Below are positions 4,836-59,612 of a stretch of DNA of 64,000 nucleotides, piece by piece. Source of the stretch: Deltaproteobacteria bacterium. GTDB taxonomy: Bacteria > SAR324 > NAC60-12. The DNA is taken from the NCBI GenBank assembly GCA_038133845.1, contig JAYPUA010000003.1, positions 58,444-122,443 of the forward strand, read 5' to 3'. Every line of letters starts with the position of its first letter. Positions within the stretch are counted from its first letter, which is position 1. A program made the position numbers and the translations under genes. The notes under the pieces were generated by a model, which ran no database searches, was not told the DNA's origin, and saw nothing but the letters and a program-made list of their open reading frames with translations.

Positions 4836-6408
<1,573 letters not shown>

Positions 6409-38026: not shown

Positions 38027-38962
38027 ATGAAGCGTGTTCACGTCATCGACTCCCACACCGGCGGAGAGCCCACCCGGGTCGTGGTCTCCGGAGGCCCGGA
38101 CCTGGGACGCGGCTCCCTCGCCGAACGCCTCGCACGCTTTCGCCATGAGCACGACCACTGGCGCTCGGCACTGGTCAATGAACCCCGCGGTTCGGACGTC
38201 CTCGTCGGAGCGCTCCTGCTCCCTCCGGAAGATCCGGAGTGTGTCACCGGAGTGATCTTCTTCAACAACGTCGGCTACCTCGGGATGTGCGGTCACGGAA
38301 CGATTGGGCTGATGACCACGCTGGCTCACCTGGGACGCATTGAGCCGGGAACGCACCGGCTGGAGACTCCGGTGGGAGTCGTTGAAGCGACGCTGCATCC
38401 GGAGGGCTCGGTGTCGCTGGAGAACGTCCCCAGCTTCCGCAAGCAGGCTCAACTCACGCTTGAGGTTCCCGGGGTCGGAGCAATCTCTGGAGATGTGGCC
38501 TGGGGCGGGAACTGGTTCTTCCTCACAGAAGAGCACGGGCAGGACCTGCGGCTGGAGAACGTGGAGGCGCTGACGGAGGCGGCGTGGCGTGTGCGGCAGG
38601 CCGTGAATTCCCAAGGATTCCCGGAGGTGGATCACATCGAATTTTTCGGTCCGCCGAGGCATCCGAAGGCCCAGTCTCGGAGCTTTGTGCTCTGTCCCGG
38701 GAAGGCTTATGACCGCTCTCCCTGCGGCACCGGGACCAGCGCGAAGCTCGCCTGCCTCGCGGCAGACGGCAAGCTCCCGGAAGGCCAGGTCTGGATTCAG
38801 GAGAGTCTGGTCGGCAGCACCTTTCAGGCCAGCTATCGCTGGGGCCCGGATCGCCTTCAGATCCTGCCCAGAATCACCGGCCGCGCGTACCTGACCACCG
38901 ATGCGACGTTGCTGCTGGAAGACGCCGATCCGTTTCTGTGGGGAATTCGTTCGGAGGGATAG
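38027..38962 (+). CDS. Proline racemase / 4-hydroxyproline epimerase family enzyme (both catalytic Cys present)
   Basis: MCGHGTIG and [10 protein letters not shown]. Confidence 0.85.
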
Positions 38963-46086: not shown

Positions 46087-47694
46087 ATGGCTGACCAGGC
46101 CAACATCCTCCAAGACGTCAGGCTGCAGTTTCAGGACTTTTTCGGGTCCCTCAGTCTGGGCAAGCGCATCACCATCCTTGGAGCGTTGGGCATCATCCTG
46201 ATCGGCATGGTCGGTCTGATCATTGTCGCCAATCGCCCCACTTGGGCTCCGCTGTATTCCGAACTGGATCCAGCCGATGCCGCCAAGATCGTCAACAAAC
46301 TTCAGGAAAACCAGATCCCCTACCTCTTGGCTCCCGGGGGGGGGACGGTCATGGTCGACCCGCAGATGGTTGATCAGGCTCGACTGACGCTTGCTCGAGA
46401 AAAAGTTGTCCCAGGCAGTGGCGTGGGCTTCATGGATCTGTTTGCGACTCCCAGCTTGGGAGAGACGGAATTTCAGCAACAGGTGAAATTCCGTGTCGCT
46501 CAGGAAGGAGAGCTGGCCCGGTTGATTGGGCAGTTGGACGCCGTCCGGAACGCCAAGGTCTCCTTGGCCATCCCTCAGAAAAGCCTCTTCTCCGAAGCTC
46601 AAGAAAAGCCGACCGCTGCGGTTGCCTTGAGCATCAACAACAACATCACCCGCGAACAGGTAGAGACCATTGTGCATTTGGTCGCCGGTGCGGTAGAAGG
46701 CATGAGCATCACCGATGTCCGGGTCTCGGATCAGAGCGGGAAACTGCTCAGCCGTGGCGTCTCCAACGACAGCATGGGGGGGAACATTGGGGACAACTAC
46801 ATCTACCAGCGCCGCTACGAGCAGGAAGTGGAGAGCAAGATCCGCAACCAGCTGGAGGAGATCGTCGGAGATGGTCGGGTCAAGGTGATCGTCTCAGCAA
46901 CCATGCGTTTTGACCGAGAAACCATCAAAGAGCAACTGATCGACCCGGATCAGACCAGTGTGGTCAGCGAACAACTGGTCGATGAGGCCTCCACAGGATC
47001 CCGCTCGATCCCCGTCGGTCCCTCCGGTGTGACGACCAACCTTCCGGAAGCCACTGGGCGTGAAGCCGCAACCGTCTCCGAATTCACCAAGAAGAACTCC
47101 ACACGAAATTTTGAGACCAGCCGCCGGGAAGTCCTCAAGGAGGCGGCGATTGGCGAAGTGTTGCGTCTGAGCGTTTCCGTCCTGCTGGACAACAAGCGTC
47201 CGCAGATTCTTGACGATAGCGGGAACTTCATCGGTCGAGACAACATCCGTTGGACCGAAGCCGAGAAGGAAGTCATCGTCGGGCTGGTCAAGGCCGCCAT
47301 CGGCTACAATGAAGGTCGGGGCGACGAGGTCTTCGTGGGCAACATGCCCTTCGGAAAAGCGGTTGAGGAAGACAAGGCTGCAGAGATCGAACGGACTCGG
47401 GTTCGCAACCAGTTCATCCTCGATATCGTCCGCTACGTGGCTCTCGGCATCGCCGTGGTGGCCCTCATCACCCTGGTCATTCGCCCGATGGTTCAACGCC
47501 TCAGCGCCAAGCCTGCCGACCTGGACATGCTCATGGGCCTGCCTGCGACCATTGGCGAACTCGAGGGCGAGGAACTCGAGATCCCGACCGAGCGCGAATC
47601 CGGAATTCCTCCACGCGACAAGATCATCGAGATCGCCAAGCAAGACGCACTCAAGACCGCATCCCTGGTGCGCTCTTGGCTGCGTGAGAAGTAA
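46087..47694 (+). CDS. fliF: Flagellar M-ring protein FliF
   Basis: 535 aa with N- and C-terminal TM helices and a large periplasmic RBM region. The C-terminal cytoplasmic tail is present. Confidence 0.9.
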   Translation: MADQANILQDVRLQFQDFFGSLSLGKRITILGALGIILIGMVGLIIVANRPTWAPLYSELDPADAAKIVNKLQENQIPYLLAPGGGTVMVDPQMVDQARLTLAREKVVPGSGVGFMDLFATPSLGETEFQQQVKFRVAQEGELARLIGQLDAVRNAKVSLAIPQKSLFSEAQEKPTAAVALSINNNITREQVETIVHLVAGAVEGMSITDVRVSDQSGKLLSRGVSNDSMGGNIGDNYIYQRRYEQEVESKIRNQLEEIVGDGRVKVIVSATMRFDRETIKEQLIDPDQTSVVSEQLVDEASTGSRSIPVGPSGVTTNLPEATGREAATVSEFTKKNSTRNFETSRREVLKEAAIGEVLRLSVSVLLDNKRPQILDDSGNFIGRDNIRWTEAEKEVIVGLVKAAIGYNEGRGDEVFVGNMPFGKAVEEDKAAEIERTRVRNQFILDIVRYVALGIAVVALITLVIRPMVQRLSAKPADLDMLMGLPATIGELEGEELEIPTERESGIPPRDKIIEIAKQDALKTASLVRSWLREK

Positions 47695-47741
47695 CCAGGT
47701 CGACACCGTCGGCCAAGGCCTGTTCCTCGTGACCCCAGCCT

Positions 47742-48767
47742 TTGCGCCTTCCCATGCCTGAAGATTCTGAGTTTCAATCCTTTGACCTGAAAGACTTCAG
47801 CCACCTCAGCGAACAGCCCGAGGAGGAACGTCCGGAGGTGACCCCAGGAGTGGATGCCGAGGGATTCAGCCCGATTGACCTCTCCGGACGACGCCTGACA
47901 GAAGCCGAACTGGAACCTCAGGAGGACTCCCTCTCCGAGGAGGAGAAGGTTGCCTTTGCCCAGAATTTTCACAACGACAGCTTCATCCGGGAAGACAGCC
48001 TCCTCACCAGCGCGGAAGCCTATGCCTCGACGGTGCGGGAGGGGGCCGACCTGTATCGTCAGCAACTGCTGTCCGGTGCAGAGACGGAGCGCAATGAAGC
48101 CCGACGTCTGAGGCAAGAGGCAGACCAGATCCGGATTCAAGCGGAGGAGCAGCGGGCCCGGATGATTGAAGAGGCCGAGCAATCAGTCAACAGCATCCGG
48201 GAGAGTGCACGACAACAGGGCTACGAGGAAGGCTACGCAAGCGGATTGCAGCAACGCTACGAAGAGGCTGCACCCGTGGCACAGAGAGCGGAGGAGGTCC
48301 TGCAGCAGCTCATGGGGTTGCGCCAACTGGTTCGCTTTCAATCGGAGCAGGAGTTGGTTCAGCTTGCAGTGGTGATCGCCCGGAAGTTGGTCATCGAAGA
48401 GCTAAGCGTCAACTCTCAGGTCATTCAAAATATTGTCCAGGCTGGGCTGAAGGAGATCGAGGGGAAAGGCAAGATCACCGCGATCCTCCACCCCGAAGAT
48501 TACGATTTTTTAGCGAACAGTGGAGTCAATTTTGATCCTTACCTCGGCGAGGAGCAGTCGCTGTCCGTTCGCTCTTCCATGGATGTAGAACCCGGCTCCA
48601 TATCCATCGAGTCGGATGAAGAGGCTGTCAACTTCTCGTTCCAGCAAAAGTTTGAGGAGTTGGAGGAGTTGCTCAGCCAAAAGCTGGTGGAGCGCTACGC
48701 CCGGATGAATGAGATCGACATGGATTCCGAAGAGTTTCAGACTCCTGCAAAAGAAGAGATGTCATGA
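47742..48767 (+). CDS. fliH: Flagellar assembly protein FliH (regulator of the FliI ATPase)
   Basis: Charged coiled-coil middle region, and C-terminal ELVQLAVVIARKLV...ILHPEDY typical of FliH/SctL. Confidence 0.7.
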   Translation: MRLPMPEDSEFQSFDLKDFSHLSEQPEEERPEVTPGVDAEGFSPIDLSGRRLTEAELEPQEDSLSEEEKVAFAQNFHNDSFIREDSLLTSAEAYASTVREGADLYRQQLLSGAETERNEARRLRQEADQIRIQAEEQRARMIEEAEQSVNSIRESARQQGYEEGYASGLQQRYEEAAPVAQRAEEVLQQLMGLRQLVRFQSEQELVQLAVVIARKLVIEELSVNSQVIQNIVQAGLKEIEGKGKITAILHPEDYDFLANSGVNFDPYLGEEQSLSVRSSMDVEPGSISIESDEEAVNFSFQQKFEELEELLSQKLVERYARMNEIDMDSEEFQTPAKEEMS

Positions 48768-50113
48768 GCCTGCCACATCCAGAGGCTCACTCGAACTCCG
48801 CGCTCCAGCCTTACCTCCAGACCATTCTCCACCAGCCCAGCATCCGCAGGGAGGGCCGCGTCACGCAGGTGATCGGTCACATGATTGAGGCCACCAATCC
48901 CGGATGTTCAATCGGTTCGCTCTGCCGGATTCTGAATCCACGAGATCACTCTCATGTGCCTGCAGAGGTGGTCGGCTTGCGGAACGAGAAGATCCTCGTG
49001 ATGCCCTTGAGCCATGCCTACGGGATCGGGCCACACTGCCGGATTATTGCAGAGGATCGTCCCGCAATGGTTCCCGTGGGCGACAGCCTGCTGGGGCGAG
49101 TCTTCGACCCCTTGATGCGCCCCATCGACGACCTGGGGGATTTGGCGACCAACCAGGAGATTCCGCTCCATCCGGAAGTGATCAATCCGTTGAAGCGCGA
49201 GCGCATCAAGGAGCCTCTGGATGTCGGAGTTCGCTCCATCAACGGCACCCTGACCTGTGGACGGGGACAGCGTGTGGGGATCATGGCGGGCTCGGGAGTG
49301 GGGAAATCGGTGCTCCTGGGCATGATGGCCCGCTACACGGATGCCGACGTGAACGTGATCTCGCTGATTGGCGAGCGGGGAAAGGAGGTCCGAGAGTTTA
49401 TTGAGGACAACCTGGGAGAAGAGGGGCTGCGACGCTCAGTAGTGGTGGTCGCGACCTCGGATCAGCCTCCACTGCTCCGGATGCGAGGTGCCTACGTCGC
49501 GACGGCCATCGCGGAGTACTTCCGAAATCAAGGCCTGGATGTGCTGCTCTCCATGGACTCGCTGACTCGATTTGCCATGGCCCAACGAGAGATCGGCCTT
49601 GCTGCCGGGGAACCTCCCACGACCAAAGGCTATCCGCCATCGGTGTTTGCCATGCTTCCCCTGCTCTTGGAGCGGGCTGGAACCCATCAGGGTGAAGGCT
49701 CCATCACCGGGTTCTACACCGTGCTGGTCGAAGGGGACGACACCAACGACCCGATCGGGGATGCCGTGCGCTCGATTGTTGATGGACACATCGTCCTCAG
49801 TCGAGACCTCGCCTCCAAAGGCGTCTACCCGGCTATTGACGTCCTGCTCTCCTCCAGCCGGGTGATGGTGGACGTCGTGCCCAAGCACTTCCGCCAACTC
49901 TCACAGATCTTCCGCAGAACTTTGGCCACCTACAGCGAAGCTGAAGACCTGATCAACATTGGCGCCTACGTTCAGGGGAGCAACCCAGAGATCGATTACT
50001 CCCTCTCCAAACACTCCGCGATCATGGAGTTCCTCACTCAGGACATGGAAGACCACACCTCCCTGACCGAGTGCGAAGCTCGCATGCAGCACATGTTCGG
50101 CGACCGGATGTGA
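48764..50113 (+). CDS. fliI: Flagellum-specific ATP synthase FliI
   Basis: Walker A GSGVGKSVLLGMM and an F1/T3SS ATPase fold. Start overlaps the fliH stop. Confidence 0.9.
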   Translation: MSLPHPEAHSNSALQPYLQTILHQPSIRREGRVTQVIGHMIEATNPGCSIGSLCRILNPRDHSHVPAEVVGLRNEKILVMPLSHAYGIGPHCRIIAEDRPAMVPVGDSLLGRVFDPLMRPIDDLGDLATNQEIPLHPEVINPLKRERIKEPLDVGVRSINGTLTCGRGQRVGIMAGSGVGKSVLLGMMARYTDADVNVISLIGERGKEVREFIEDNLGEEGLRRSVVVVATSDQPPLLRMRGAYVATAIAEYFRNQGLDVLLSMDSLTRFAMAQREIGLAAGEPPTTKGYPPSVFAMLPLLLERAGTHQGEGSITGFYTVLVEGDDTNDPIGDAVRSIVDGHIVLSRDLASKGVYPAIDVLLSSSRVMVDVVPKHFRQLSQIFRRTLATYSEAEDLINIGAYVQGSNPEIDYSLSKHSAIMEFLTQDMEDHTSLTECEARMQHMFGDRM

Positions 50114-50134: not shown

Positions 50135-50785
50135 TTATTGCCCCCCTCCTGAAGGGAACCGGTAGCCGAAGCCGAGGTATCCTACACTGAACTTGGCGTC
50201 ATACTCCTTGACGTCCGTGGTGTCTGAAGTATTGGTCGCTTTCAGCGCAATGTCCCAAGTTCTCTGCCCCAGCAGAAGCTCCCAGTTTTCTCCCAGAGCA
50301 AAGCCAATATTCACAAAGTAGGAATTACTCCTCTTCGTGGTGGTATCATACAGTCCGGAGTACTCGACGCCGTCTTCCTTCAGGCTGGTAAGGGTCGCGC
50401 TTCCGACAATCCCGACTCCCAACGTCAGGTTGATGTCCTCCCCCAGCGTGTAGGAGAGGTCGAGTGTACTTCCCCCAATGGCTGTCTCGTCCAGATTGGA
50501 TTCAAGTACGGCCTCGTTGCTGTACGTCACCGAACCCGTCGCAAAGCCAATCCCCAAGCCATTGTCAAAGACATAGTACAGGTCAAGCCCAGAAGCGGAC
50601 ACGGTGTTGGTGAGGCTGCTGGTGAAGTCGGTTTTGGTTCCGTTATCTGTCCGGTTGTACTCGGCCACTGTTCCGGACAAGCCAAACGAGAAGCGAATCC
50701 TTGAGTTTTCCACTGCAAAGGTTGTCCCGGCGAACATCAGCAGCAGGCTGAGGGTCGCTAGAAACCGAAGCCATTTGGGATTCAT
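50135..50785 (-). CDS. Outer-membrane beta-barrel protein (OmpW/OmpA-like small porin family)
   Basis: Signal peptide, alternating amphipathic strands, and C-terminal GFGYRF. Confidence 0.6.
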   Translation of the reverse strand: MNPKWLRFLATLSLLLMFAGTTFAVENSRIRFSFGLSGTVAEYNRTDNGTKTDFTSSLTNTVSASGLDLYYVFDNGLGIGFATGSVTYSNEAVLESNLDETAIGGSTLDLSYTLGEDINLTLGVGIVGSATLTSLKEDGVEYSGLYDTTTKRSNSYFVNIGFALGENWELLLGQRTWDIALKATNTSDTTDVKEYDAKFSVGYLGFGYRFPSGGGQ

Positions 50786-50969: not shown

Positions 50970-51989
50970 TTACTCGCCGCGTTCGGCACGTATGCGGGCA
51001 GAGCGCTCGTCGATGTAGCGCTGAAACTCGGGCTGCTGCTCATAGTCCCTCTGGAGGACGTACTCCAGCGCTGCCTGGACGTGAAAGCCGCGCAGGTAGC
51101 TGTCCATCCGGAAGGTCTCTGTGCGCTCTCCGGCAGCATAGAGGAGGATGGTCGGAAAGTAGTTGAGTTTCAGCCCAGACACCCAGTCTCGAACAGACGT
51201 CCTCGTTCCATCCGGAAGGGTGAGCGCTTCCGAGGACAGCGCGTCGTAGCGAGTCACACGGTACTTTTTCAGCAGCTCATAGCTCCCCTTCTGGCTGAAA
51301 GCTCCTTGCTGCATGCGCAGGCAGTCGTCGCAGCTTCGGGTCTCGAGAAAGACCGCGAGCGGCTGCTCTCCGACCCACTGATCCAGCCGGGTGGTCTGTT
51401 CAAAGAAGGGCTGGGGGTAAAGCTCCCCCTGGGGCAGGCGGTAGGCCTGTAGTGCGTCCTCTTCCACTCCGGCCACCTGTCCCAGTAGCCGCAGAAACGG
51501 CTTCGGAGGGCGGTAGCCGTTGAGTCGGGCCTTCGGATTCTCCAGATCTGGCGAGTCCAGCACAATCAGGGTCGGGGTGTACTGGACCTTCAGATGGATG
51601 GCAAACTCCTTCTCGCTCATCGTGCTCCCGTCTGGAAGCGTCACTTCACGGTCTCCACGGAGGTTGAAGGAGACCACATCAAAATGTTCCTGTACAAACC
51701 CTCGGATGTCCGGAGCCGAGAGGTTCTTCTGAGCCATCGCCATGCAGTACGGACACCCCTCTTGCCAAAAGTAGAGGATGAGTTGCTTGCCGGCCTCCTG
51801 AGCCTCCACGACGTCTTCATCGACAATCAGGAAGCTGTCCTTGAACCAGTACGGGTTCTCAAAGGCCGAACCGACCTGCCCCTGGATGAACTCATCCGAT
51901 CCGGAAGAGCCCTGGGCAAAGACGTGCGAGACCGGACCGAAGATCCACAGGCAAAGGAAACCGGCCATCCACCAATTTTTGAAATTCAT
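50970..51989 (-). CDS. Periplasmic protein with two thioredoxin-like domains and two CXXC motifs (GCPYC and SCDDC)
   Basis: Signal peptide MNFKNWWMAGFLCLWIFGPVSHVFA-Q and the Trx-fold consensus around each CXXC. The ORF is open to 52007. Confidence 0.6.
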   Translation of the reverse strand: MNFKNWWMAGFLCLWIFGPVSHVFAQGSSGSDEFIQGQVGSAFENPYWFKDSFLIVDEDVVEAQEAGKQLILYFWQEGCPYCMAMAQKNLSAPDIRGFVQEHFDVVSFNLRGDREVTLPDGSTMSEKEFAIHLKVQYTPTLIVLDSPDLENPKARLNGYRPPKPFLRLLGQVAGVEEDALQAYRLPQGELYPQPFFEQTTRLDQWVGEQPLAVFLETRSCDDCLRMQQGAFSQKGSYELLKKYRVTRYDALSSEALTLPDGTRTSVRDWVSGLKLNYFPTILLYAAGERTETFRMDSYLRGFHVQAALEYVLQRDYEQQPEFQRYIDERSARIRAERGE

Positions 51990-52158
51990 ACCATTGCACC
52001 AGATCAAGACGTTTTACAAGCCACCTGCGAGACGCAGGGTGCTTCAAATTGGTCTGTTTTGCCCGGAGGGGCAATGCAAAAATGAGGAGAGTTCCGGGGA
52101 GAGTGGAAGCCCGGAGGAAGAAGGCTGAATCGGCTCCTCCGGGGAGACGAGATCACCC

Positions 52159-52422: not shown

Positions 52423-52447
52423 TTGTAAATAAAATTGTTATTTACAA
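52423..52447. promoter_or_regulatory. Inverted repeat TTGTAAATAA-aattg-TTATTTACAA inside a ~110-bp AT-rich island upstream of the dapF-like gene
   Basis: 10-bp perfect arms. The region 52380..52490 is below ~25% GC in a ~62% GC genome. Confidence 0.35.
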
Positions 52448-52566
52448 ATTTTAACATATATATTTCATTTTCAACGAAATCATGTTGGAATGCTCCTCGG
52501 TTGCGCGCACGCCTGAAAGTCTCCGGAGAGGCGTGCCCCGATTGAGTTCGTTTCCACGGTTGGAGC

Positions 52567-53403
52567 ATGAGATTTCTGAAGTACCACGCGCTGGGCAACG
52601 ATTACCTGGTGATCGACCCACGCACGGCGGAAGGTCCCCTGAGCCCCCATCAAATTCAGCAGATCTGCCATCCGCACTTCGGGGTCGGCTCGGATGGAAT
52701 CCTCTGGGGCAGCCCGGAGGCAGAGGCCGGGACATTCTCGCTGCGGATTCTCAACCCGGATGGAAGCGAGGCCGAGAAGAGCGGAAACGGCCTGAGAATC
52801 TTTTCTCGCTTCCTCTGGGACGAGGGCGCTGTCGCCGAGGCTCCCTTCTACATTCAGACTCCGGGAGGACGAGTGGAGGCGGTGGTCCGTCCGGACGGGC
52901 GGGAGGTGACTGTGGAGATGGGGCAGGTGAGTTTTTCCAGCGAGCGCATTCCGGTCTCCGGGCCAGCCCGGGAGGTCCTGGAGGAGACGATTGAGGTCGC
53001 GGAGGAGACGCTACGCTACTGTGCAGCAACGATCGGGAACCCTCACTGTGTCGTGCTGCAAAAGGCTTCCGAGGCCGACGCCCGGCGTTGGGGCCCGCTT
53101 CTGGAGCGAGCGGAGCGCTTCCCGAACCGGACCAACGTGCAGTTCCTGGAGGTGCTGAGTCGAGACCGGATCCGGATCCAGATCTGGGAGCGGGGAGCCG
53201 GTTACACGCTGGCCTCCGGAAGCAGTAGCAGCGCCGCCGCCGCAGTGGCTCACCGGATGGGATGGTGCGATTCGGAGATTATGGTAGAGATGCCTGGTGG
53301 CGTGCTGTTCATTTCGATTCTCCCGGATTTCTATATTCGCATGCGAGGTCCAGTGACTCGGATTGCCGAGGGAAAACTTTCCTCGGAAATCTGGAAATCC
53401 TGA
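52567..53403 (+). CDS. Diaminopimelate-epimerase-family protein in which both catalytic cysteines are replaced by serine (S72 and S217)
   Basis: Collinear with DapF: LGNDYLVID, NPDGSEAEK-S-GNG versus E. coli ...AQ-C-GNG, IGNPHCVV, and WERGAGYTLA-S-GSSSSAA versus ...QA-C-GSGACAA. Confidence 0.8.
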   Translation: MRFLKYHALGNDYLVIDPRTAEGPLSPHQIQQICHPHFGVGSDGILWGSPEAEAGTFSLRILNPDGSEAEKSGNGLRIFSRFLWDEGAVAEAPFYIQTPGGRVEAVVRPDGREVTVEMGQVSFSSERIPVSGPAREVLEETIEVAEETLRYCAATIGNPHCVVLQKASEADARRWGPLLERAERFPNRTNVQFLEVLSRDRIRIQIWERGAGYTLASGSSSSAAAAVAHRMGWCDSEIMVEMPGGVLFISILPDFYIRMRGPVTRIAEGKLSSEIWKS

Positions 53404-53687
53404 AATTTCAAGAAACTAGCAACATTTCTCAGAGGGAGGCCTCCGGAGAGGGTAGGTCAGTGGCATGAAATTGGAAAGTATGGGATCAATGACTTCGTCC
53501 TCGTCGAGCCGTTCGATTCAGGAAGAAACTGCGGTTCACCCGGCAGGCGAAGGAGCTTTTGGGAGGTTTATATTCCGCTTCGTTCTTGGAAGAGCGCGGG
53601 CACACTCAAACCATCACTGTTTCAATGGTTCCCCTTATGCACACCCAGAGTCGGCATGTCGATCTGCTCAGCAGCCGCAACAAAGAG

Positions 53688-53867
53688 ATGGAGTTCGAAA
53701 AGGAAGAAAACTACATGATCCTCTGGAGCTACATTCGCCGCCGCTACCCGGGAATGGACCTGGAGTCCAAATCCTTCACCGACCTCGTTCAACTCAAGGT
53801 CAGCCTGGAAGGTCCTCGCAACTTGAGAGAGTGGACCGGAGACATCGCCTCTGTCCGCAAGCACTGA
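53688..53867 (+). CDS. Small hypothetical protein (59 aa), chosen as the high-GC3 3' part of ORF 53559..53867
   Basis: GC3 rises sharply after this ATG. AAAGAG lies upstream as a weak ribosome-binding site. Confidence 0.25.
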   Translation: MEFEKEENYMILWSYIRRRYPGMDLESKSFTDLVQLKVSLEGPRNLREWTGDIASVRKH

Positions 53868-53889
53868 CGCCACCGGCCTTTGAGCAGCG

Positions 53890-55713
53890 ATGAAGGCCGA
53901 CGCGCTCACAGCAGAACTGGAGCAGCGTCTCCGACAGCGCACCATCGGTGCCCAGCACCTCGCTGCTCATGACCAGTCCCGCTCCGGAACCCCTCGGGCG
54001 CTGCATCGCCTGACCTGCTCTCCGGACCTGCCCTCTCCGCTATCCCAACTGCTCCTGCACATGATCCCGGAATTGCTGGGACATGCCGAGGAGCAGGGAT
54101 TCACCCTCCGACACCTCTACTACTCGGTCACCTTTCACACGGCAGAGTCGTTTTTCCACACACAGGGACGCGCCGTTCCGGAGAAACTCAAGTTGCCCAC
54201 CGTGATGTTTCGCCCGGCAACCGACCGTCCGGGGTCGGTCAATGTCCTGCTCCCTGCAGTACTGAAGAGCACCGAGTCGCTGCTGGAGTCCGTCCGCCGC
54301 ATCCTGACCCGCCTGGTCGCCCAGCAGTTTCTGGAAGAGTCCGTGCTGCCTCTGGAGTTCTACCGCACCTCGGTGGTGTCGTCCAGGGATCAGGTGACCA
54401 CCGGTCCGGAGGAGATTCTGGGCCTGATCGCGGCGCTGGAGTTTCCCTCTCCCACGCTGGAGTCCTTGCCTCCGGAGACCTCCGGGAGCCCTTTTCCCGG
54501 GCTGCGGATGAGCCCCCGTCAACAGCAGGCTCAGGCGTGGCGCAAGCGACTGAACTCCGAGCCGGAACCGAACGAGACGCTCTTGGAGTCCCTGGAACTC
54601 ATCTGGGGAGAGTTTCTGGCCGAGTTCGAGCTGCAGCCGGAGAAGTGGAAGCAGTCCCTGGTGGAAGAGGCCTGGAAGCTGGATGCGCAGAACCACCTCC
54701 TGTGGCCTCAGGAACGTCTGGACTTTCAACGCCTTGCCGAACAGCGTCCGGAGCACTTTCTGCGCTCCTTGGGGGTTCGCCTGACAGAGCTGGGAGCACT
54801 GGCGGAGTTTCTGCTGGAGGTCCATGAGAGCGCCGAGAGCCTGGAGGCTCCGGAGCTGCAGTCGGCACTGACCGAGCAGGTACTGGGCAAGATGCACGAG
54901 CTGCAGCGCTCGGAGAAGGCCTGGCCCCACCTGATCCCGGGGGTGCTGGAAGAGAGCGCTCAACGCCGTGCCGAGCAGCGCTTCAAGCTGTGGCTGGTCA
55001 AGCTGGCCCAAGCTCGGAATGTCCCCGGAAAGGAGTGGCAAAAATGGACCCGTCGTGCTCAAAAGACCTGTGAGCAGGCATTTTCCCAGAAGATCTACGA
55101 GGGGCTGTTACGCTTGCGGCGCTTCCTTCAGCAGAAGCAGGAGCAGCCGGAGACACCGCTGCCCCAGGAATTGAGCAAGCTGCAGCACGCGCTCCGGTTT
55201 CGCCTGTCACGCCTGCAGGAGTGGCAGGCCGCGCTGGGTGTAATGGCCGACCTGAGCGAGGCCGACACCTCCCGGACACGGCAGCACTTCCCACTCGAGG
55301 CCTTCCTGCGAGCTTGGACCCACACCCTCTCTGCGTCTCTGATTCTGAGCTACTTTGAGGCTCACCCGGAGGAGCAGACCTTCCTCAATCAACGCTTTCA
55401 GCCACAACGCTACCGCACCTGGCTGGGGCAGGATGCCCTGCGCCGTGTGGAGTCGGGACAGTTGGTGTTCCTGCTCGTCTTGCTGTTTCTCAAGGTGGAG
55501 GAGCGCCTGGAACCCGGTGAACTGCCCGGCTTTCTGCGTGAACTGGCTCTGGAGCCTCGCAACAGCCTGAGGTTCACCCTGCACCAGGTGATCCAGCCTT
55601 TTCCGGAAGACCCGAAGTACGGGCTGGAATATCGCCTCAAAAAGTTGGACAATTATGCCGATGCCTTGGTTCAGGCCCATCTCAAACGGCTTCAGGAGAA
55701 AATTCCGGAATGA
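53890..55713 (+). CDS. Large (607 aa) predicted all-alpha hypothetical protein, Leu/Glu/Arg/Gln-rich, with no recognisable domain
   Basis: Long ORF with coding-like composition, translationally coupled (ATGA) to the downstream lipoprotein gene. Confidence 0.55.
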   Translation: MKADALTAELEQRLRQRTIGAQHLAAHDQSRSGTPRALHRLTCSPDLPSPLSQLLLHMIPELLGHAEEQGFTLRHLYYSVTFHTAESFFHTQGRAVPEKLKLPTVMFRPATDRPGSVNVLLPAVLKSTESLLESVRRILTRLVAQQFLEESVLPLEFYRTSVVSSRDQVTTGPEEILGLIAALEFPSPTLESLPPETSGSPFPGLRMSPRQQQAQAWRKRLNSEPEPNETLLESLELIWGEFLAEFELQPEKWKQSLVEEAWKLDAQNHLLWPQERLDFQRLAEQRPEHFLRSLGVRLTELGALAEFLLEVHESAESLEAPELQSALTEQVLGKMHELQRSEKAWPHLIPGVLEESAQRRAEQRFKLWLVKLAQARNVPGKEWQKWTRRAQKTCEQAFSQKIYEGLLRLRRFLQQKQEQPETPLPQELSKLQHALRFRLSRLQEWQAALGVMADLSEADTSRTRQHFPLEAFLRAWTHTLSASLILSYFEAHPEEQTFLNQRFQPQRYRTWLGQDALRRVESGQLVFLLVLLFLKVEERLEPGELPGFLRELALEPRNSLRFTLHQVIQPFPEDPKYGLEYRLKKLDNYADALVQAHLKRLQEKIPE

Positions 55714-56123
55714 GCGTAGCAACACGCCACCTCATCATTGCGACCTGTGGATTGGGAATGCTCTTGCTCGGCGGGTGTGCCGGCAAGCCCGTCGCCCCTC
55801 CCAAAGTGCCCCTCTACGAGCGCTTGGGTGGGGAGGAGACGCTGGTGGCGCTCTCCCTACAGGTCAGTCGTGACGACCGCTTGGCCGAGATGGTCAACCG
55901 TCGCGGAGAACGGTTCTTCCGGATGCGGCTTCACGATCACCTGTGCATCGCCGCTTCCGGGCCATGCGAACCGGTCGGCACAGAGACCTTCCAGCGTGAG
56001 TTTGCTCTTGGAGAGACAGAGGCACGGACCCTGCGTCGGGTCATGGCAGAGGAGTTGGAGCGCTTGGAGGTGCAGAGTCCGGAGGCACAGGAACTTCTGC
56101 GCGTCTCCGGACTGCCAAACTGA
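55710..56123 (+). CDS. Lipoprotein with a truncated-haemoglobin-like (group-1 trHb) signature but no obvious proximal His
   Basis: Lipobox LLLGGC. LYERLGGEETLVAL... resembles the trHb IYDKIGG motif, and IAASGPCEPVGT resembles the trHb AAALGGPEPYTG motif. Confidence 0.45.
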   Translation: MSVATRHLIIATCGLGMLLLGGCAGKPVAPPKVPLYERLGGEETLVALSLQVSRDDRLAEMVNRRGERFFRMRLHDHLCIAASGPCEPVGTETFQREFALGETEARTLRRVMAEELERLEVQSPEAQELLRVSGLPN

Positions 56124-57782: not shown

Positions 57783-58721
57783 ATGATCCTTTCTTGTGGG
57801 GAAGCCCTGATCGACTTTGTTCCCCGACACCTGTCGGACGGAGCCACGGCATTTCGTCCCTGTCCGGGAGGTTCTCCCATGAACACAGCCGTGGCGCTGG
57901 GACGGCTGGAGGTTTCGGTGGGGTTTTTGACCCAGGTCTCCCGGGACTTCTTTGGCGACCTGCTGATCGAGCACATGCGCGAAAGCAAGGTGGAGGTCGG
58001 CCTGATCTCTCGCACGGACCTGCCGACGACTCTGGCCTTTGTCAGCGCGCCTCAGGGAGAAGACGTCCGTTATGCGTTCTACAACCAGACCACTGCAGAT
58101 TTTTCATTTGCCCCGGAAAGCCTCCCCGACAGCCTCCCAGAGTCCGTCACCGCCTTGCAGTTTGGCTCGATCTCCCTGACCGGAGAGCCCTGCGCCACCG
58201 CATGGGAGACCTTGATTTTCCGTGAATCGTCGAGGCGCTGCCTCTCGCTGGATCCAAACATCCGCCCCAGCCTGATTCCGGACCGCTCCCGCTACTTGGA
58301 GCGCCTGGAGCGTTGGATCACGCAATGCCACCTAATCAAGGCCAGCAGCGAGGATCTCGAGTGGCTGTATCCGGGACACTCGCTGGAACAGGTCGCTCGG
58401 CATTGGCGCTCTCTGGGGGCTCACCTGGTGTTGATCACCGATGGCGGCAAAGCCTCCCACGCCTTTGGCGACTGCGGCGCCGTGGAGGTCGCGGTACAGC
58501 CGACGCAGGTGGTCGATGCTGTCGGAGCCGGAGACACGTTTCATGCCGCAGTTCTGGCTTGGTTGGAGGAGCGTGGCCAGCTCTCTTCTCAGGGGCTGAA
58601 GCGGTTGACCGTGGAGGAATTGCGGAGTTGCCTCGGATTTGCCAACCGAGTGGCCCGTGTGGTATGCCAGCGCGAAGGAGCCAACCCGCCTTGGCGACAT
58701 GAACTCGAAGAGCCAGCCTGA
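57783..58721 (+). CDS. PfkB-family carbohydrate kinase (fructokinase-like)
   Basis: N-terminal GEALIDF and the C-terminal anion hole DAVGAGDTF. Confidence 0.85.
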   Translation: MILSCGEALIDFVPRHLSDGATAFRPCPGGSPMNTAVALGRLEVSVGFLTQVSRDFFGDLLIEHMRESKVEVGLISRTDLPTTLAFVSAPQGEDVRYAFYNQTTADFSFAPESLPDSLPESVTALQFGSISLTGEPCATAWETLIFRESSRRCLSLDPNIRPSLIPDRSRYLERLERWITQCHLIKASSEDLEWLYPGHSLEQVARHWRSLGAHLVLITDGGKASHAFGDCGAVEVAVQPTQVVDAVGAGDTFHAAVLAWLEERGQLSSQGLKRLTVEELRSCLGFANRVARVVCQREGANPPWRHELEEPA

Positions 58722-58730
58722 CTCAGGCCC

Positions 58731-59612
58731 ATGACGGCTTTTTGCCTGAGCACGCACAGGAACGGGAAGCCTCGGAGGCTGGATCTGGGGACACCCCGCG
58801 TGATGGCGGTGCTGAACGTGACTCCGGACTCCTTCTCTGACGGCGGGCGCTTCCCGGAGGCTCGCCCGGCATGGGAAGAGGCGTTGCGCATGGAAACCTC
58901 CGGGGCCGAAGTGATCGACATTGGCGGAGAATCCAGCGGCCCGGGGAGCCTTGGAGTGACTTTGCAGGAAGAGCTGGATCGCGTGATCCCCGTGGTTCAG
59001 GAGCTGCGAGCCCGCAGCGAGGTCTGGATCTCGGTGGACACGTGGCGAGCCGAGGTCGCCCGGACCGCACTGGAAGCCGGAGCCGACATGGTCAATGACG
59101 TGACGGCGTTGCGCGGAGATCCGCACATGGGTGCCCTGCTGGCCCAATCCTCCTGCCCCGCTGTCTTGATGTACTCAAAAGACCCCTCGGCTCGAACCAC
59201 CCGAGAGAGTCCGGACTATCCGGACGTGGTTGCGCAGGTGCGGACGTTTTTCCAAGAGCGCCTTCAGCTTGCGGCAGAGTTGGGAATTCGCCAAGAGAAC
59301 CTGATGCTGGATCCGGGGCTCGGTTTCTTTGTCAGCGGGAATCCCAGCTTCAGCTTCGAGCTGCTCCGCAGGCTCCCGGAGTTGGCAACCCTGGGGTGCT
59401 CTTTGCTCGTTGGAACCTCCCGGAAGTCCTTTCTTGCAGGAGTGCTTCCGGGACACCACCTTGCCCCCTCCGAACGGCTGGTTCCCAGCCTGACTGCCGC
59501 CCTCTGGGCCTGGCTCCACGGTGCTCAGGTCGTCCGGGTTCATGATGTGGATGAGACCATCCTGATGCGAGCGACCCTCCAAGCCCTCCAAGGCAAAGCC
59601 CCAGCCTTCTGA
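58731..59612 (+). CDS. folP: Dihydropteroate synthase
   Basis: VMAVLNVTPDSFSDGG, DIGGESS and MVNDV. Confidence 0.85.
   Translation: MTAFCLSTHRNGKPRRLDLGTPRVMAVLNVTPDSFSDGGRFPEARPAWEEALRMETSGAEVIDIGGESSGPGSLGVTLQEELDRVIPVVQELRARSEVWISVDTWRAEVARTALEAGADMVNDVTALRGDPHMGALLAQSSCPAVLMYSKDPSARTTRESPDYPDVVAQVRTFFQERLQLAAELGIRQENLMLDPGLGFFVSGNPSFSFELLRRLPELATLGCSLLVGTSRKSFLAGVLPGHHLAPSERLVPSLTAALWAWLHGAQVVRVHDVDETILMRATLQALQGKAPAF

Follow-up and report, generated by a model that had tools for sequence, protein, structure and literature searches.

Can diaminopimelate (DAP) epimerase, DapF, operate without the two cysteines of its active site? A gene in a 64,000-nucleotide stretch (positions 58,444 to 122,443, hereafter the window) of contig JAYPUA010000003.1 from a Deltaproteobacteria bacterium (assembly GCA_038133845.1) raises this question. 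The gene (52567..53403 of the window, plus strand) is a complete coding sequence, from ATG to TGA, for a DapF homolog of 278 amino acids plus stop. Its protein has Ser72 (AGC, 52780..52782, plus strand) at the site of the catalytic Cys73 of the E. coli and H. influenzae enzymes and Ser217 (TCC, 53215..53217, plus strand) at the site of the catalytic Cys217, as assigned from HMMER alignments. On balance, our sequence comparisons lead us to favor the view that the Ser/Ser protein and its clade are working, thiol-free, cofactor-independent epimerases of LL- and meso-DAP. In favor of this view, the fold and the DAP site are kept, the serines are selected, the second shell of the active site co-evolved with them, and the clade has partners in the DAP pathway.

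Assignment to the DapF family

The only Pfam match of the window protein is DAP_epimerase (PF01678; 7e-51, 171.8 bits against a cut-off of 34.7, two domains). The protein also scores 230 bits over residues 1-272 with the NCBIfam equivalog for DapF (TIGR00652; cut-off, 114.65), and its best-scoring solved relatives in HMMER searches are all diaminopimelate epimerases, led by the Anabaena DapF (PDB 9mro, 8e-53). The conserved motifs LGNDYLVID, IGNPHCVV, and WERGAGYT start at residues 9, 156, and 207, respectively. Profile matches and motif positions alike bear out the original prediction of a protein collinear with DapF, and the prediction that serines replace both catalytic cysteines was confirmed in every detail, codons included. 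The alignments to solved DapFs are free of gaps around both sites and place Ser72 and Ser217 exactly opposite the catalytic cysteines, with the window sequence 'eksgng' matching 'emCgng' or 'eqCgng' at the first site and 'tlasgs' matching 'tlaCgt' or 'tqaCgs' at the second. Canonical DapFs carry the PROSITE-type signature N-x-D-G-S-x(4)-C-G-N-[GA]-x-R; the corresponding region of the window protein is NPDGSEAEKSGNGLR, which has Ser where the signature has Cys. We also ruled out a displaced catalytic cysteine nearby, as Cys34, 152, 161, and 234 are non-catalytic positions that are either common to canonical DapFs or variable.

An AlphaFold2 model of the window protein, for which 118 clade sequences served as input, reached a predicted local distance difference test (pLDDT) score of 96.6. 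The model has the two pseudo-symmetric alpha/beta domains of the DapF fold, with two helix N-termini pointing into the active site. Ser72 is at the N-terminus of helix 73-85 and Ser217 at the N-terminus of helix 218-230, like the cysteine pair in DapF. The top structural match in Foldseek was the closed, ligand-bound Anabaena DapF (9mro), with a TM score of 0.91 and a root-mean-square deviation of 2.3 Å. Indeed, the protein shares with the plant and cyanobacterial DapFs (Arabidopsis 3EJX and Anabaena 9MRO, the best profile matches) the two-domain fold, the DAP-binding residues, Gly44, and the x-Glu-x loop that leads into the first catalytic residue, as well as, at the level of the clade, the pathway partners DapL, LysA, and MurE. 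It lacks, however, the Cys73/Cys217 pair of canonical DapF (EC 5.1.1.7). Because Ser72 and Ser217 stand in place of that pair, we assigned the protein to a Ser/Ser subfamily of its own within the DapF family and did not classify it as canonical. The chlamydial bifunctional DapF/glutamate racemase (NF038284) is another DapF-family enzyme with a remodeled pocket that is found in lineages of the PVC (Planctomycetes-Verrucomicrobia-Chlamydiae) type with the DapL pathway. However, the chlamydial enzyme keeps and needs both cysteines (PMC5885031), and the score of the window protein on the NF038284 model (54.6 bits against 350) rules out this type.

A large Ser/Ser branch of DapF

The window gene falls in a Ser/Ser branch of DapF that is large, ancient, and apparently undescribed. 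Contigs from several independent sequencing runs, 10 in all, encode the identical protein, and the Ser pair is present in all of the 120 nearest homologs (63-99% identity). A scan of named genomes, limited to one genome per species, identified Ser/Ser proteins in 77 of 80 loci from about ten phyla. Furthermore, a HMMER search that covered every protein of a 1.8-billion-protein library was evaluated at the level of 50%-identity clusters, and of the best 150 representatives 126 had the pair; the remaining 24 representatives were mostly one-site fragments or hybrids. A second search with a seed from the Opitutales retrieved Ser/Ser proteins as all of its best 120 matches.

The closest relatives among the named loci are in Desulfobacterota-type 'Deltaproteobacteria' metagenome-assembled genomes (MAGs), at 74-75% identity. 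Other groups represented are the Opitutales and other Verrucomicrobiota, Kiritimatiellia, Planctomycetota, Chloroflexota, Nitrospira, Latescibacterota, Gemmatimonadaceae, Rokubacteria, Polyangiaceae, and Treponema/Rectinema. Carriers are also scattered among the Beta- and Gammaproteobacteria (e.g., two Marinomonas species and Paraglaciecola) and include Nostoc minutum. In the cultured species Cerasicoccus arenae, C. frondis, and C. maritimus, the Ser/Ser protein is the one annotated DapF. Carriers with complete or near-complete genomes include OZ242383.1, OZ240241.1, OZ244235.1, the 4.49-Mb contig of ERZ21829562, C. arenae, Marinomonas posidonica, and Nostoc minutum NIES-26. In a neighbor-joining tree, which is a quick distance tree, the Ser/Ser proteins formed a single clade, and seven canonical DapFs fell outside it. 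The subclades mostly tracked phyla, and a few placements looked like horizontal transfer. The Sedimentisphaerales MAG Zod_Metabat.96 has distinct Ser/Ser genes on two of its contigs (L038 6048..6854 and L073 1..591), with 53% and 47% identity to the query; they are either paralogs of this clade or the result of a mixed bin.

Full-text literature searches returned no description of a natural Ser/Ser DapF, and a search of the PDB found no solved structure of a natural Ser/Ser member. Curated models accept these proteins as ordinary DapF, which is probably why the clade went unremarked.

Conserved serines and a clade-specific second shell

We compared 160 Ser/Ser sequences to seven canonical DapFs, using E. 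coli numbering for the changes. All of the residues that bind DAP or support catalysis in characterized enzymes (PMC12039745, PMC5885031) are kept (N11, N64, N75, N157, H159, N190, E208, R209, and T214). Those that bind the two ends of DAP (N11, N64, N75, N157, N190, E208, and R209), together with His159, are present in the window protein and in at least 98% of the clade; the E208/R209 pair reaches 99% and is common to all the canonical sequences compared. In the window, this pair is Glu208-Arg209 (GAG CGG, 53188..53193), which is retained for DAP binding and catalytic support, and the other binding residues are N11 (52597-52599), N63 (52753-52755), N74 (52786-52788), N158 and H160 (53038-53046), and N190 (53134-53136), all on the plus strand.

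The two serines are as conserved as the binding residues around them. C73S is present in 100% of the clade and C217S in 99% of the 160 sequences, whereas in the alignment of 118 members Ser72 (118/118) and Ser217 are both invariant. This conservation (100% for Ser72 and 99-100% for Ser217) holds across sequences down to ~35-40% identity. The codons used across the loci are AGY (66) or TCN (10) at site 72 and TCN (75) or AGC (3) at site 217. The use of both Ser codon families at both sites fits long purifying selection for serine as such.

The clade also differs from canonical DapFs in the residues surrounding the Ser pair. Directly before Ser72, the window protein has the clade-specific Lys71 (AAG, 52777..52779, plus strand), which corresponds to residue 72 in E. 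coli and is Lys in 88% of the clade but Met or Gln, and in none of seven cases Lys, in the canonical enzymes. The residue before the first catalytic cysteine is part of a loop that curves around the substrate (Pro-Glu-Met in the Anabaena DapF), and no basic residue is near the thiols of the canonical active site (PMC12039745). Tyr13 (TAC, 52603..52605, plus strand) replaces a Phe that lines the active site of canonical DapF (F13Y; Tyr in 97% of the clade versus Phe in 7/7) and whose equivalent in C. trachomatis DapF (F22) is listed among the active-site residues (PMC5885031). Similarly, Ser220 (AGT, 53224..53226, plus strand) takes the place of Gly220 (G220S; 97% versus Gly in 7/7). In the Anabaena DapF, the equivalent Gly227 donates a hydrogen bond from its backbone NH to the sulfur of the second catalytic cysteine, Cys224 (PMC12039745). 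Gln192 (CAG, 53140..53142, plus strand), two positions past the DAP-binding Asn190, is conserved in 98% of the clade at a site where canonical enzymes have Gly or Glu. The third conserved cysteine of canonical DapF, in the motif GNGxRC, is replaced by Ile78 in the window protein (ATC, 52798..52800, plus strand; C79I, Ile in 98% versus Cys in 6/7). Two additional changes, V206I and L242M, are near-invariant in the clade. Hence, relative to canonical DapF, the window protein combines the Ser pair and the loss of Cys79 to Ile with an added shell of changes (F13Y, M/Q72K, G/E192Q, and G220S).

The catalytic and second-shell positions are coupled site by site in the rare hybrid sequences: Cys217 or Thr217 occurs with Gly220, Ser217 occurs with Ser220, and Lys never precedes Cys72. 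Natural hybrids (P0167, P0168, P0139, and P0258) carry Ser/Cys, Thr/Cys, Ser/Thr, or Cys/Ser at the catalytic positions. One of them (P0167) is on a 1.6-Mb contig, with housekeeping genes around it in the 19.5-kb stretch that was read. A few Ser/Ser homologs have a canonical second shell (Phe13, Glu192, and Gly220), as in Ca. Solincola of the Actinomycetota (P0238/P0394/P0395) and in P0267. Their sequences suggest an intermediate stage or an independent Cys-to-Ser switch.

Partners of the Ser/Ser genes in other genomes

DapL makes LL-DAP and both LysA and MurE use meso-DAP; hence, the sole step between them is the DapF reaction. We clustered 1,255 neighbor open reading frames (ORFs) from 81 loci, each spanning 10 kb on either side of the Ser/Ser gene, dapF(SS). 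In seven Opitutales loci, the gene is directly after (in three, directly before) a DapL gene (NF004937, 634.6 bits versus 585). A Polyangiaceae MAG has dapF(SS) followed by a DapL gene of the other class (TIGR03542, 545.6 versus 364.7) and a gene for a LysA-like decarboxylase that scores below threshold (256 versus 297.9). In an alphaproteobacterial MAG, a gene for a DapL-like aminotransferase adjoins dapF(SS) and a bona fide lysA (386 bits) is 3 kb away. Gene fusions connect the same activities. LysA-DapF(SS) fusions are present in three separate 50%-identity clusters (P0128, P0133, and P0148), with P0128 scoring 360 bits against 297.9 on TIGR01048, and a DapF(SS)-MurE fusion (P0144; TIGR01085, 451 versus 257) was found in two independent metagenomes. 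This association with partners upstream (DapL) and downstream (LysA and MurE) of the epimerase step, by adjacency as well as fusion, is the pattern of a working DAP epimerase.

Other associations are with alanine racemases. DapF(SS) is fused to an alanine racemase in both domain orders (P0196 and P0200), and a Treponema MAG (L070 1..6735) has a cluster of alr, dapF(SS), an alr-like gene, and genes for an M20 amidohydrolase and an LD-carboxypeptidase-like protein, followed by lysA (443.6 bits). The layout of this cluster recalls the staphylococcal dapF2 operon and murein-peptide recycling. As in Treponema, dapF(SS) of a Rectinema MAG (L079 8804..12320) has a genuine alr on one side and, on the other, a second alr-like gene of greater length. 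A DapF2-type identity of these Alr-like partners was considered but not favored; the one compared, the Treponema neighbor, is closest to genuine alanine racemases (4y2w, 4.5e-64). The P0128 fusion gene (L088 8001..10211) is flanked by two oligopeptide ABC transporter gene sets and by genes for an SH3-NlpC/P60 peptidase and an amidohydrolase, a locus that looks like one for murein-peptide uptake and breakdown. Occasional fusions of DapF(SS) are with GNAT, methyltransferase, and GGACT domains.

Other Ser/Ser members are located among housekeeping genes (thrS, cysS, hemB, rpoN, tsaD, and purB). In Marinomonas aquiplantarum and M. posidonica (L029, L032 5400..12400), dapF(SS) is between a gene for a GDSL/SGNH-like hydrolase and those for an AraC-type regulator and a LysE-type exporter. 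Genes resembling components I and II of aminodeoxychorismate/anthranilate synthase, judged by sequence only, are 2-4 kb upstream; homologs of HisR from F. nucleatum also co-occur with genes of this type. As to whether the Ser/Ser homologs form a clade with conserved neighbors, they are one clade in the neighbor-joining tree and have recurrent, specific partners, but no neighbor is universal, and no family beyond the DapF-like gene is present in more than 14 of the 81 loci.

A proposed thiol-free mechanism

If the Ser/Ser proteins epimerize DAP, Ser72 and Ser217 would serve as base and acid, one at each face of the alpha-carbon. The helix dipoles and the new polar neighbors could activate the two hydroxyls; on one side, Lys71 and Ser72 might form a dyad, and on the other, Ser220 or Tyr13 might act with His160/Glu208. 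A catalytic role for Lys71 may thus be envisioned. By our own reasoning, the substrate is a very weak carbon acid whose deprotonation would have a Brønsted coefficient near 1; in principle, a scarcer but much stronger alkoxide base would therefore be thermodynamically conceivable. There is also precedent for the replacement of one cysteine by a hydroxyl residue in natural cofactor-independent Asp/Glu racemases. A double hydroxyl pair in DapF proper was not mentioned in a racemase review or the other literature searched.

The thiol/thiolate mechanism described for DapF is inapplicable as written to a protein in which both cysteines are replaced, and the original prediction stands in this respect. 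Its corollary that the protein cannot epimerize, so that a canonical DapF would be needed elsewhere, is unsupported in view of the huge conserved clade, the retained DAP residues, and the DapL, LysA, and MurE partners. The redox switch of canonical DapF and its capture by aziridino-DAP (aziDAP) at Cys are likewise inapplicable. In C. glutamicum DapF, H2O2 inactivates the enzyme via a disulfide between the two catalytic cysteines (PMC5296763), and aziDAP alkylates the catalytic cysteines of DapF (PMC12039745). A Ser/Ser enzyme would be immune to both the disulfide shut-off and the alkylation by inhibitors of the aziridino-DAP type.

Several observations weigh against an active epimerase. Single Ser mutants of the H. 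influenzae and M. tuberculosis DapFs are reportedly severely impaired. In DapF-fold racemases such as HisR, catalysis is slowed or hindered when Ser is engineered in place of Cys (C67S and C209S), and Cys-to-Ala changes abolish the function of the chlamydial DapF (PMC5885031). E. coli lacking dapF still grows (GapMind 2026 preprint); thus, a position in the pathway is no proof of a highly active or efficient enzyme. Furthermore, a non-homologous DAP epimerase dependent on pyridoxal 5'-phosphate (PLP), DapF2, exists, and the Alr-like partners found in spirochetes and in two of the fusions might conceivably belong to the DapF2 type. Two contexts (the P0128 locus and the Treponema cluster) resemble salvage of murein peptides more than they do de novo synthesis, and most Ser/Ser loci have no conserved neighbor. 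The patchy copies in Marinomonas, Paraglaciecola, and Nostoc are in non-lysine contexts and are probably extras; these lineages are expected to have a canonical DapF, as Anabaena does (PMC12039745). In the window itself, we found no homologs of DapL, LysA, MurE, or Alr, and an Rfam search identified no lysine riboswitch upstream of the gene.

The engineered enzymes differ from the natural ones, however. The H. influenzae DapF mutants C73S and C217S (PDB 2Q9H and 2Q9J) and the F. nucleatum HisR mutants C67S and C209S have the same fold with Ser at a catalytic position, but they are single swaps in an otherwise canonical site and their catalysis is hindered. In contrast, the natural clade has both serines together with compensating changes and has been under long-term selection. 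We extend the proposal of a working Ser/Ser epimerase only tentatively to its broadest form, a serious possibility on which we would not insist: the clade may comprise the first natural thiol-less cofactor-independent amino-acid epimerases, with serines tuned by Lys71, Tyr13, Ser220, and Gln192, and may be the only DapF in whole phyla (Opitutales and other Verrucomicrobiota, Planctomycetota, Latescibacterota, Gemmatimonadota, and many Desulfobacterota-type lineages), whose meso-DAP supply would then be insensitive to oxidation and Cys-directed inhibitors.

Alternative explanations

The alternative that best withstands the evidence, though we consider it unlikely, is a neofunctionalized DapF-fold enzyme that binds DAP or a close analog but whose reaction is another one or runs one way only, for instance elimination, hydration, or the epimerization of a modified DAP or a DAP-containing murein peptide. 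Cys-to-hydroxyl swaps do alter the outcome in other racemase families, leading to one-way Asp racemization or 3-hydroxyproline dehydration. For example, the E. coli Asp/Glu racemase EcL-DER (Thr/Cys), MMP0739 of M. maripaludis, and trans-3-hydroxy-L-proline dehydratase (Cys/Thr) have one cysteine replaced by Thr or Ser at the same structural position. These enzymes are from other superfamilies or subfamilies, however, and the single replacement is accompanied by one-way racemization or dehydration. The fixed and distinctive second shell of the clade is consistent with a new function, as are the accessory-looking copies in Marinomonas, Paraglaciecola, and Nostoc and the salvage-like contexts of the P0128 fusion (with Opp, NlpC/P60, and amidohydrolase genes) and the Treponema cluster (with LD-carboxypeptidase-like, M20, and lysA genes). 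Yet the residues that recognize both ends of DAP are all unchanged, and no partner gene hints at a hydroxylated or otherwise modified substrate. The neighbors and fusion partners are exactly the enzymes that flank the epimerase step, and the wide, largely vertical, housekeeping-type distribution of the clade better fits a core step. The analogy that was originally drawn to the proline-racemase family, in which a Cys-to-Thr swap yields dehydratases, was a legitimate lead, but nothing that we found supports dehydratase chemistry. Proline-racemase-type dehydratases are only distant fold matches in Foldseek (E ~1e-15, 12-16% identity), and the window protein is without any catalytic cysteine. Hence, neither family membership nor the one-Cys/one-Thr arrangement applies, which rules out this identity.

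Somewhat less probable still is that the Ser/Ser protein is a genuine DAP epimerase that works beside a canonical Cys/Cys DapF as an oxidant- or electrophile-proof back-up, useful when thiols are oxidized or alkylated. The inactivation of canonical DapF by an H2O2-induced disulfide (PMC5296763), which a Ser/Ser enzyme cannot form, would give such an isozyme a purpose, and its patchiness across Marinomonas, Paraglaciecola, and Nostoc suggests that a copy was added. However, members of the clade occur commonly among strict anaerobes and in lineages of the gut (Desulfobacterota-type MAGs, Sedimentisphaerales, Opitutales, and Treponema), and the dapL-dapF(SS) operons resemble a primary pathway. 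Neither the window nor the 10-kb surroundings of any locus examined contained a second DapF. The idea of a plasmid-borne accessory copy was also rejected, as PLSDB has only canonical DapFs with <40% identity to the query. Furthermore, the window encodes a DapF-fold relative, a proline-racemase-family protein of 311 amino acids (38027..38962, plus strand) that keeps its Cys/Cys pair (GMCGHG and SPCGTG) and scores just below the 4-hydroxyproline epimerase cut-offs (429 versus 450 and 426.8 versus 442). The presence of this Cys/Cys enzyme in the same window indicates that the organism does not generally avoid catalytic thiol pairs.

We see little likelihood that the protein is a dead pseudoenzyme, retained as a DAP-binding sensor or partner subunit (e.g., for LysA, MurE, or Alr-type enzymes) while another enzyme such as the PLP-dependent, Alr-like DapF2 epimerizes DAP. 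Cys-to-Ser mutants serve as near-inactive forms for crystallography, and E. coli DapF moonlights as a partner of RppH (PDB 6d13). DapF2 of Staphylococcus, which was found by genome context and confirmed by complementation, acts at the same metabolic step and is likewise independent of a thiol pair, and Alr-like genes are fused to or flank the Ser/Ser genes in some lineages. However, DapF2 is a non-homologous, alanine-racemase-like PLP enzyme of fold type III, whereas the window protein has the DapF fold, and we found no evidence that it uses PLP, as DAP_epimerase is its only Pfam match. The Alr-like neighbor in Treponema is nearest to genuine alanine racemases (4y2w), and most Ser/Ser loci are without an Alr-like partner. 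Former catalytic positions normally drift, yet here they are invariant serines with co-evolved neighbors, and the catalysis-supporting His160 and Glu208 are kept. An inactive paralog, as the original prediction also contemplated, is unlikely given that conservation reaches 100% or close to it for both serines and that both Ser codon families are used at each site.

Finally, a sequencing, assembly, or alignment artifact that hides a true Cys at both sites has a vanishingly small probability and is already refuted: each Ser codon is one substitution from TGC, but the identical protein on 10 contigs from independent runs and the hundreds of uniformly Ser/Ser homologs from independent projects exclude sequencing error, and no gaps interrupt the alignment to solved structures near either site.

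Surroundings of the gene in the window

The Ser/Ser gene stands alone in the window, behind a spacer of ~560 bp. This AT-rich spacer contains a sigma-70-like promoter match (TTGTTA-18-TATATT; 52435..52464, plus strand) ~100 nt upstream of the ATG, which agrees with the consensus at 9/12 positions and is a consensus match only. Upstream are the flagellar export genes fliF, fliH, and fliI (46087..50113, plus strand), a gene for an outer-membrane beta-barrel protein (50135..50785, minus strand), and a thioredoxin-like gene (50970..52007, minus strand) that is divergent from the Ser/Ser gene. Just downstream is an ORF of 607 amino acids (53890..55713, plus strand) with no Pfam or NCBIfam match, flanked by small unannotated ORFs (53465..53893 and 55710..56123). 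In the two closest relatives (L002 and L056), a homolog of the 607-amino acid ORF (cluster 26) likewise follows just downstream. Farther along are a PfkB-family kinase gene (57783..58721, plus strand) and, directly after it, a gene for dihydropteroate synthase (58731..59612, plus strand; TIGR01496, 272 bits). The only Rfam match in the window is an S-adenosylmethionine (SAM; S-box) riboswitch (6296..6406, minus strand) that scores 53.4 bits against a gathering threshold of 44.4.

Implications

DapF is the textbook two-cysteine, cofactor-independent racemase and an antibacterial target whose best inhibitors alkylate those cysteines. Here, a large natural clade is without both cysteines and is still wired into the steps from LL-DAP to meso-DAP and on to lysine and peptidoglycan. 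If the clade were inactive or had another function, thousands of genome annotations would be wrong, because the TIGR00652 equivalog comfortably accepts Ser/Ser proteins, and a gap would be hidden in the lysine and peptidoglycan reconstructions of several phyla. An active clade would mean that the thiol pair is dispensable, and the Ser/Ser proteins would define lineages with a DapF that is neither redox-switchable nor open to Cys-directed inhibitors.

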